Source of the DNA: Escherichia phage ph0011
Length of the DNA: 64,000 nt
Sequence record: OP557969.1
Direction: 5' to 3' (one strand)
Part shown: piece by piece, positions 18,523-18,615 of the stretch
Layout of the letters: every line of letters begins with the position of its first letter
Position numbering within the stretch: position 1 is the stretch's first letter
Made by a program: the position numbers and the translations under genes
The notes under the pieces: generated by a model
Database searches by the model: none
Told to the model about the DNA's origin: nothing
The model's input: only the letters and a program-made list of their open reading frames with translations

Positions 18523-18615
18523 GGAAGGGTGGCAGAGCGGTTGATTGCACTCGCCTACTAAGCGAGCAAGTGTTAGAAATAACGCTTCGTGGGTTCAAAT
18601 CCCACCTCTTTCGCA
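18523..18615 (+). tRNA. tRNA, type II (long variable arm), isotype uncertain; anticodon reads ACT as folded
   Basis: acceptor GGAAGGG/CTCTTTC (two G-U), anticodon stem CTCGC/GCGAG loop CTACTAA, 22-nt variable arm, T arm GTGGG-TTCAAAT-CCCAC. Confidence 0.55.

Follow-up and report, generated by a model that had tools for sequence, protein, structure and literature searches.

A tRNA-Ser gene with the anticodon ACU in Escherichia phage ph0011 and related jumbo coliphages: a probable AGU-specific reader with adenosine at position 34

Anticodons starting with adenosine (ANN anticodons, with A at position 34, A34) are rare in bacteria outside tRNA-Arg(ACG), and a serine-type tRNA gene with the anticodon ACU in Escherichia phage ph0011 raises the question of what such a tRNA reads, and whether it is a working tRNA at all. 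The stretch of DNA analysed here (the window) comprises 64,000 nucleotides of this phage (sequence record OP557969.1), has a G+C content of about 32% and belongs to Asteriusvirus, a group of 121Q/PBECO4-like jumbo coliphages of about 350 kb including 121Q, PBECO4 and G17. A first reading, made from the sequence only, had described a class II tRNA and left three options: a Ser-type tRNA reading AGU, a tRNA with altered decoding or a pseudo-tRNA. In this study, we document how this gene, tRNA-Ser(ACU), folds and how far it is conserved, together with its promoter motif, its synteny and the codon usage of the phage. The gene probably encodes a working serine tRNA that leaves A34 unmodified and reads AGU specifically. 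Scaffold, promoter, invariance, codon use and published data on the same anticodon loop all favour the first option, and altered decoding and a pseudo-tRNA are both disfavoured.

Four methods concur on a class II tRNA with well-folding arms and a variable region of 22 nt. ARAGORN calls tRNA-Ser(act) at 18523-18614. The Rfam tRNA model (RF00005) is matched over its full length (1-71) with 49.9 bits, which is above its gathering score of 29 bits (E=1e-7 over the whole window). The unconstrained minimum-free-energy (MFE) fold of ViennaRNA is the same cloverleaf (z = -1.97), and an identical gene in a GenBank relative carries the tRNAscan-SE note 'tRNA-Ser(ACT), score 63.3' with isotype Ser. The anticodon loop CUACUAA is read in the same register by all of them, in the Infernal/Rfam alignment as U33, A34-C35-U36 and A37, and neither ARAGORN nor Infernal nor the free-energy fold gives an alternative register with a canonical anticodon. 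The covariance-model folding that the sequence-only reading had proposed as a check therefore upholds both its fold and its anticodon. The four stems and all universally conserved tRNA features are intact: an acceptor stem of 7 bp (GGAAGGG/CTCTTTC) with the wobble pairs G2.U71 and G6.U67, U8, a D arm at 18532-18548 with the stem GCA(G)/(T)TGC, a 7-nt anticodon loop with U33, the T arm GTGGG-TTCAAAT-CCCAC and the discriminator G at 18613. A tRNA-Sec identity, which calls for an 8/5 acceptor/T-stem arrangement, a 6-bp D stem and the anticodon UCA, is excluded by an acceptor stem of 7 bp, a T stem of 5 bp, a D stem of 3-4 bp and the anticodon ACU. Weak Rfam matches over the region (YrlA, sX4, Tymo tRNA-like) stay far under their respective gathering scores, and the tRNA arms account for them.

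The same structure points to serine. Serine identity depends mainly on the size of the long variable arm; seryl-tRNA synthetase (SerRS) does not use the anticodon and is aided by G73 and the acceptor stem (PMC9976931). Ser(ACU) possesses the long variable arm of a class II tRNA-Ser with a stem of 8 bp, the discriminator G73 and the pairs G1-C72 and C11-G24. Its body also resembles accepted tRNA-Ser genes. Acidobacteriota tRNA-Ser(CGA) genes have the same D arm (GAGCGGTTGA), anticodon stem (CTCGC/GCGAG) and T arm (CGTGGGTTCAAATCCCAC), and the isotype given by tRNAscan-SE is Ser.

The anticodon loop equals that of E. coli serV (CTGCTAA) with G34 changed to A, and published experiments bear on how such a loop decodes. 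An orthogonal M. jannaschii tRNA with the identical loop CU-ACU-AA contained no inosine but only A at position 34 when present in E. coli; it read AGU at 9.4% (reassignment) and AGG at 0.36%, whereas any reading of AGC or AGA fell below detection (PMC11066159). Over-expression of an E. coli Ser-tRNA(ACU) resulted in better growth parameters (bioRxiv 10.64898/2026.05.15.725136). By analogy with these other tRNA bodies, the ACU loop of the phage tRNA would escape the deaminase TadA and be specific for AGU.

One alternative is a functional tRNA in which host TadA or a phage deaminase converts A34 to inosine, the resulting ICU anticodon reading AGU, AGC and the Arg codon AGA. The 17-nt anticodon arm differs from that of E. 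coli tRNA-Arg(ACG) (argV), the natural substrate of TadA, at pair 31-39 and position 36 only. We do not take this likeness by itself as meaningful, since many tRNAs have that stem. A tRNA from another split codon box, Phe-AAA, is inosine-modified in E. coli (bioRxiv 10.64898/2026.05.15.725136), and the paper on phage Sharanji lists a 'tRNA-specific adenosine deaminase'. Position 36, however, is part of what TadA is known to accept, namely U33-A34-C35-G36 in a 7-nt loop on a tRNA-Arg2-like arm. Ser(ACU) has UACU, with U36, and every mRNA site found to be edited by TadA in E. coli lies in a UACG motif (PMC13170351). Moreover, in vivo the base at position 34 of the same ACU loop was A only, and AGC and AGA were left unread (PMC11066159), and an inosine would bring serine to AGA codons, which make up 9.2 per thousand in the phage. 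As to a phage enzyme, the Sharanji protein is dCMP/ComEB-deaminase-like (71 bits to ComEB versus 30 to TadA, with cut-offs of 219 and 150), and its deaminase name (2357-2836 of the compared Sharanji stretch, minus strand) is probably an annotation error. Among 50,697 phage records searched by tblastn with the E. coli TadA, no match came from an Asteriusvirus, and the window holds no deaminase gene. A phage-encoded TadA acting on Ser(ACU) was rejected on these grounds, and inosine at position 34 is altogether unlikely.

Unmodified A34 might itself misread. As a recoding or mistranslation device, the tRNA would use 'superwobble' of A34 to insert serine at the Arg codons AGG and AGA. Superwobbling has been proposed as a hazard of split-box ANN tRNAs (bioRxiv 10.64898/2026.05.15.725136), and the orthogonal ACU tRNA did read AGG. 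The measured level was tiny, however, with AGA below detection (PMC11066159), no benefit is apparent, and the phage tRNA-Arg(UCU) at 15513 would compete for AGR codons. We consider this device extremely improbable.

Codon usage fits a reader of AGU. In the 84 open reading frames (ORFs) of the window AGT occurs 346 times and AGC 46 times (ratio 7.5). AGT is the top serine codon with 23.1 per thousand, and the U:C ratio of AGY is the highest among all two-codon boxes; in relatives AGT/AGC amounts to 5.8-6.8. E. coli prefers AGC, with about 9 per thousand for AGU and about 16 per thousand for AGC, and relative to these host values the cognate codon of Ser(ACU) is over-represented in the phage. 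The other phage tRNAs match codons that are frequent in the phage as well (UCA, AGA and ACA), all of them rare in E. coli.

The gene together with a few flanking bases (103-107 nt) is 100% identical in 17 public records representing 16 distinct phages, all of them coliphages. A34 is thus not a sequencing error, since the base is the same in all 17 records. In an alignment of ten genomes there are 0 substitutions across the 92-nt gene, and the 39 nt that precede it, counted from the -35 box, occur in four variant haplotypes. Farther upstream and downstream the DNA is mosaic or unrelated, with 66-98% identity in the surroundings. The slot of the gene, after the homologue of gene 130 and before a CAU tRNA, is taken by tRNA-Ser(GCU) in PBECO4, BF17, E9.1, the Salmonella SD phages (SD-15) and the Klebsiella RaK2-like phages. 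ACU alone is carried by 13 phages, both ACU and GCU by JP4, Turkey3, WPEC3 and the window, and GCU alone by the remaining phages, about 26 distinct ones. Judged from the sequenced loci, ACU is an alternative 'allele' that appears to have replaced Ser(GCU) in 13 sequenced phages. GCU is the allele with more hosts, Klebsiella phages included (96% identity), and ACU therefore seems to have been acquired later, inside the coliphage branch.

An origin by recent G34A mutation, from tRNA-Ser(GCU) of either the phage or its host, was considered and rejected: the bodies are unrelated, and blastn of Ser(ACU) against 5,426 E. coli genomes gave no match. Ser(ACU) and the phage Ser(GCU) have the T arm and the loop context in common and differ in acceptor stem, anticodon stem and variable arm. 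Scans of viral contigs, genomes and metagenomes did not find a donor of the ACU cassette. In the viral contigs, the pattern matched mostly unrelated tRNA-Thr with the same anticodon stem, and the sole match with ACT was 121Q itself; the genome scan gave Acidobacteriota tRNA-Ser(CGA) only, and two metagenome scans for relatives of the body returned nothing. The closest phage match to the body is the tRNA-Ser(UGA) of Pectobacterium phage CBB (72.7%). Beside its Ser(UGA), CBB has an annotated 119-nt 'tRNA-Ser anticodon AGA' (3102-3220 of the compared stretch) for which ARAGORN gives no call, and which may be an intron-containing gene or a false call.

Ser(ACU) has its own promoter motif of sigma-70 type (Table 1). 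The same promoter cassette stands upstream of Ser(GCU) (17592) and of an ORF (16833) in the window, and upstream of the orthologous tRNAs in 121Q and PBECO4. In the window it forms a 29-nt repeat, TTGACTAAATAGTTCAGTACTGATA(T/A)AAT, at 16833-16861, 17592-17620 and 18484-18512, and it could provide homology for the exchange of cassettes between phages. The CAU tRNA directly downstream is probably co-transcribed with Ser(ACU) as a dimeric precursor. At its 3' end the gene encodes CAA and a functional tRNA therefore needs its CCA post-transcriptionally. Ser(UGA) of the window (15419-15510) carries CAA in place of CCA too, so that two tRNAs of the phage lack an encoded CCA; the 121Q orthologue of Ser(UGA) encodes CCA, as do the Ser(GCU) and Met tRNAs of the window. 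Relatives encode a homologue of the CCA-adding enzyme (Sharanji gp419, which matches the E. coli Cca model over its N-terminal half with 274 bits), and no gene for such an enzyme was found in the window.

We infer the following course of events. Host RNA polymerase would start at the early-type sigma-70 promoter that belongs to Ser(ACU), and the transcript would probably include the next tRNA as well; RNase P and trimming of the 3' end would then free the tRNA, and its CCA end would be built by a CCA-adding enzyme, either that of the host or the homologue encoded by phage relatives. Host SerRS would serylate it through the long variable arm and G73, ignoring the anticodon. A34 would then pair with AGU by full Watson-Crick geometry, and the phage would presumably benefit from added decoding capacity for its commonest serine codon.

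Several points weigh against a functional, AGU-specific tRNA with unmodified A34. With respect to decoding, the experiments on the ACU loop used another tRNA body (M. jannaschii tRNA-Tyr), and the inosine in Phe-AAA implies that tRNA context matters. PBECO4, which has Ser(GCU) only, shows an equally strong AGU bias (AGT/AGC 6.8), and codon usage therefore explains the carrying of an AGY tRNA, not A34 over G34. With respect to serylation, the pair G2-C71, described as 'absolutely conserved' in E. coli tRNA-Ser (PMC9976931), is replaced by G2.U71, which could weaken it; the phage's own Ser(GCU) likewise breaks the acceptor rule, with A1-U72. The covariance score of Ser(ACU) is the lowest among the seven tRNAs of the window, and its CCA is unencoded whereas several neighbouring phage tRNAs encode it. 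Finally, many sister phages manage without Ser(ACU), and all copies are identical, hence offer no covariation; this invariance may come in part from a recent recombinational spread of the cassette.

Several of these points also suggest a non-functional or neutral tRNA-like gene, be it a decaying copy or a hitch-hiker of a promoter/homing-endonuclease mosaic, which, transcribed or not, would add nothing to translation: the CAA end, the two acceptor G.U pairs with one of them at an identity position, the low score, the absence from about 30 related phages, and identical copies which may reflect recent spread rather than constraint. Decay, however, has touched neither the conserved features nor the four stems, and the promoter is kept. 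The gene is free of substitutions beside 39 nt with four haplotypes, and it is the sole phage AGY-box tRNA in 13 independent isolates, in which Ser(GCU) is displaced. The CAA end is shared with Ser(UGA) of the window, and relatives encode the enzyme that would complete it. We therefore regard a neutral gene as distinctly unlikely and retain the functional AGU reader as the probable explanation.

Why ACU should have taken the place of GCU is a separate matter. We propose tentatively, as one possibility, that Ser(ACU) is a selected split-box tRNA with unmodified A34, kept in this jumbo coliphage lineage and displacing GCU; the advantage would be a strict Watson-Crick, U-only reading of the dominant serine codon. 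The promoter-tRNA cassette may have spread beside the homing endonuclease among co-infecting phages. The exchange of one allele for the other at a single locus could also point to an anti-defence tRNA, whose A34 or foreign body would resist a host anticodon nuclease or other toxin that hits tRNA-Ser(GCU) and so preserve AGY decoding, and it is documented that altered anticodon loops let phage tRNAs escape host tRNases (PMC10264068; PMC11555353). Yet the literature search turned up no E. coli nuclease targeting tRNA-Ser(GCU), a reader of AGU only would not rescue AGC, and the locus shows no link to defence. Such a role appears very unlikely.

The rarity that the sequence-only reading had ascribed to A34 is borne out by published counts: 7688 of 8383 bacterial ANN tRNA genes are ACG, and split-box ANN tRNAs are sporadic (bioRxiv 10.64898/2026.05.15.725136). 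For viruses, we ran ARAGORN on 102 unrelated viral-contig stretches. Among 638 calls, 13 had A34; eight of these were ACG and one was the ACU of 121Q, and the non-ACG A34 calls besides 121Q numbered four or fewer, including His(AUG), Asn(AUU) and Ile(AAU). Non-ACG A34 calls in phages are thus rare, below 1%, though not unique. The predicted His(AUG) and Asn(AUU) are on IMGVR_UViG_3300033571_007556 (5736-5807 and 8799-8869) and the predicted Ile(AAU) on another viral contig (11521-11599), all three called by ARAGORN only.

Table 1. Positions of tRNA-Ser(ACU), its parts and its neighbours in the window
Feature	Position	Strand	Basis or remark
tRNA-Ser(ACU) gene, class II, G1 to discriminator G73	18523..18613	+	ARAGORN, Rfam, MFE fold, public annotations
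Anticodon stem-loop CTCGC-CTACTAA-GCGAG	18550..18566 (stem 18550-18554 / 18562-18566; 7-nt loop 18555-18561)	+	
Anticodon ACT (A34 C35 U36)	18557..18559	+	ARAGORN and Rfam alignment; invariant in 17 records
Variable region, 22 nt: 8-bp stem AAGTGTTA/TAACGCTT, GAAA loop	18567..18588	+	main serine identity feature
3' trailer/spacer CAAATTTC	18614..18621	+	C74 then AA, no CCA encoded; joins next tRNA directly
Sigma-70-type promoter: TTGACT, 17-nt spacer, TG-extended TATAAT	18484..18512	+	11/12 consensus matches; stops 10 nt before tRNA 5' end
Adjacent tRNA, CAU anticodon, called Met	18622..18696	+	ARAGORN; Rfam 68.4 bits; starts 8 nt past Ser(ACU) discriminator
tRNA-Ser(GCU), alternative AGY-box tRNA, unrelated body	17627..17716	+	ARAGORN, locus comparison
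NUMOD4 + HNH_3 homing-endonuclease ORF, 174 aa, between the two tRNA-Ser genes	17937..18461	+	Pfam NUMOD4 3.5e-11, HNH_3 3.7e-07

Ser(ACU) is a member of a cluster of seven tRNA genes called by ARAGORN: Ser(UGA) at 15419, Arg(UCU) at 15513, Ser(GCU) at 17627, Ser(ACU) at 18523, the CAU tRNA ('Met') at 18622, Asn(GUU) at 18787 and Thr(UGU) at 19747. The endonuclease ORF, which separates Ser(GCU) from Ser(ACU) in WPEC3 as it does in the window, is annotated as an HNH endonuclease in UE-S1 and WPEC3 and is absent from 121Q and PBECO4; the enzyme may drive the inheritance of the neighbouring tRNA cassette. Between Arg(UCU) and Ser(GCU), three tandem paralogous ORFs of 54 aa (MTHEEWM...) lie at 15611-16097 on the plus strand, 165 bp each with overlapping stop and start codons, and they are kept in 121Q, G17 and PBECO4. 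A terminator-like hairpin with a T-run is located on the minus strand at 18736-18750, between the CAU tRNA and tRNA-Asn, where the nearby genes are all on the plus strand. Around 56000 the sign of the GC skew flips and the long ORFs go from the plus to the minus strand, which marks a boundary of transcription modules.

The CAU tRNA of the window may, instead of tRNA-Met, be a lysidine-type tRNA-Ile2 reading AUA, a codon with 20.6 per thousand in the phage. In G17 (4123-4212 of the compared stretch), Sharanji and JNE01 a 90-nt class II CAU tRNA directly follows Ser(ACU); it has A73 and an odd T loop (TTAGAAT), and its counterpart in the window is a normal 75-nt CAU tRNA. A long arm on a CAU tRNA departs from the bacterial standard. 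In PBECO4-type phages the CAU tRNA measures 79 nt instead of 75, its D loop is enlarged and its anticodon is at position 37 (PBECO4, 2223-2301 of the compared stretch).

The gene itself is already known, as identical copies are annotated publicly: tRNA-Ser(act) is listed in 121Q (KM507819, gene 131), G17, slurp01, Sharanji and SHEFM2K. The sequence-only reading had included neither this annotation nor the phage tRNA cluster nor the absence of an encoded CCA. The published descriptions of Sharanji and JP4 list their tRNAs and leave the anticodon uncommented, and our literature search found no account of a natural phage tRNA-Ser(ACU). The rarity of non-ACG anticodons starting with A in bacteria is an active question, pursued mainly with engineered tRNAs (PMC11066159; bioRxiv 10.64898/2026.05.15.725136). 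Ser(ACU) offers a case from nature, and it falls in a split codon box, where such anticodons are tolerated least. Laboratory E. coli supports the growth of phages with Ser(ACU), Sharanji being an isolate from K-12 MG1655, and natural controls exist in the sister phages with GCU at the same locus and in those with both tRNAs. A natural, apparently maintained A34 tRNA in a tractable E. coli phage with GCU controls therefore makes the avoidance of ANN anticodons directly testable. If Ser(ACU) is active and unmodified, such anticodons can benefit genomes strongly biased to a U-ending codon; an inert Ser(ACU) would amount to a footnote in the annotation. Should A34 have been selected, split-box tRNAs with unmodified A34, which are regarded as all but barred from cellular genomes, would have a natural E. 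coli system in which ANN avoidance can be studied.

Compared with known systems, the gene of the window has the same 92 nt, promoter and cluster position as the annotated copies in 121Q, G17, slurp01, Sharanji and SHEFM2K. Unlike these, it sits downstream of the HNH endonuclease gene with Ser(GCU) also present, and in holding both Ser(ACU) and Ser(GCU) the window resembles JP4, Turkey3 and WPEC3. With E. coli serV and the phage Ser(GCU) it shares the AGY box, class II structure, G73 and the loop CU-NCU-AA except for position 34, and it keeps U36-A37, the context for t6A37. It differs from these GCU tRNAs in an unrelated acceptor stem, anticodon stem and variable arm and in A34 for G34; pairing with AGU would therefore be of the Watson-Crick type and AGC would probably be left unread.

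In phage T4, tRNA genes without CCA give rise to dimeric precursors, and the homing endonuclease SegB is encoded in the tRNA region. Similarly, the tRNAs here are clustered a few bases apart, CCA is unencoded and a homing endonuclease gene lies in the cluster. Unlike T4, the phage belongs to another family and its endonuclease is of the HNH/NUMOD4 and not of the GIY-YIG type; a T4-like processing of the Ser(ACU) precursor is proposed by analogy only.

A34 outside tRNA-Arg is also found in bacterial tRNAs, namely Leu(AAG) and Thr(AGU) of Lactobacillales and Mollicutes and the sporadic split-box ANN tRNAs. These occur in AT-rich genomes with a preference for U-ending codons, and the split-box cases always stand beside a GNN tRNA (bioRxiv 10.64898/2026.05.15.725136); for Ser(ACU), the coexisting GNN tRNA is that of the host or of the phage. 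The bacterial A34 tRNAs that have been retained for long belong to four-codon boxes, whereas Ser(ACU) is phage-borne and belongs to a split box (AGY Ser/AGR Arg). The engineered ACU tRNAs are artificial and have other bodies, whereas the phage Ser(ACU) is natural. The E. coli Ser-tRNA(ACU), beneficial when over-expressed, has only the ACU anticodon in common with it (bioRxiv 10.64898/2026.05.15.725136). The engineered M. jannaschii tRNA has the same CU-ACU-AA loop and the same host, and its anticodon was free of inosine, specific for AGU and tolerated (PMC11066159).

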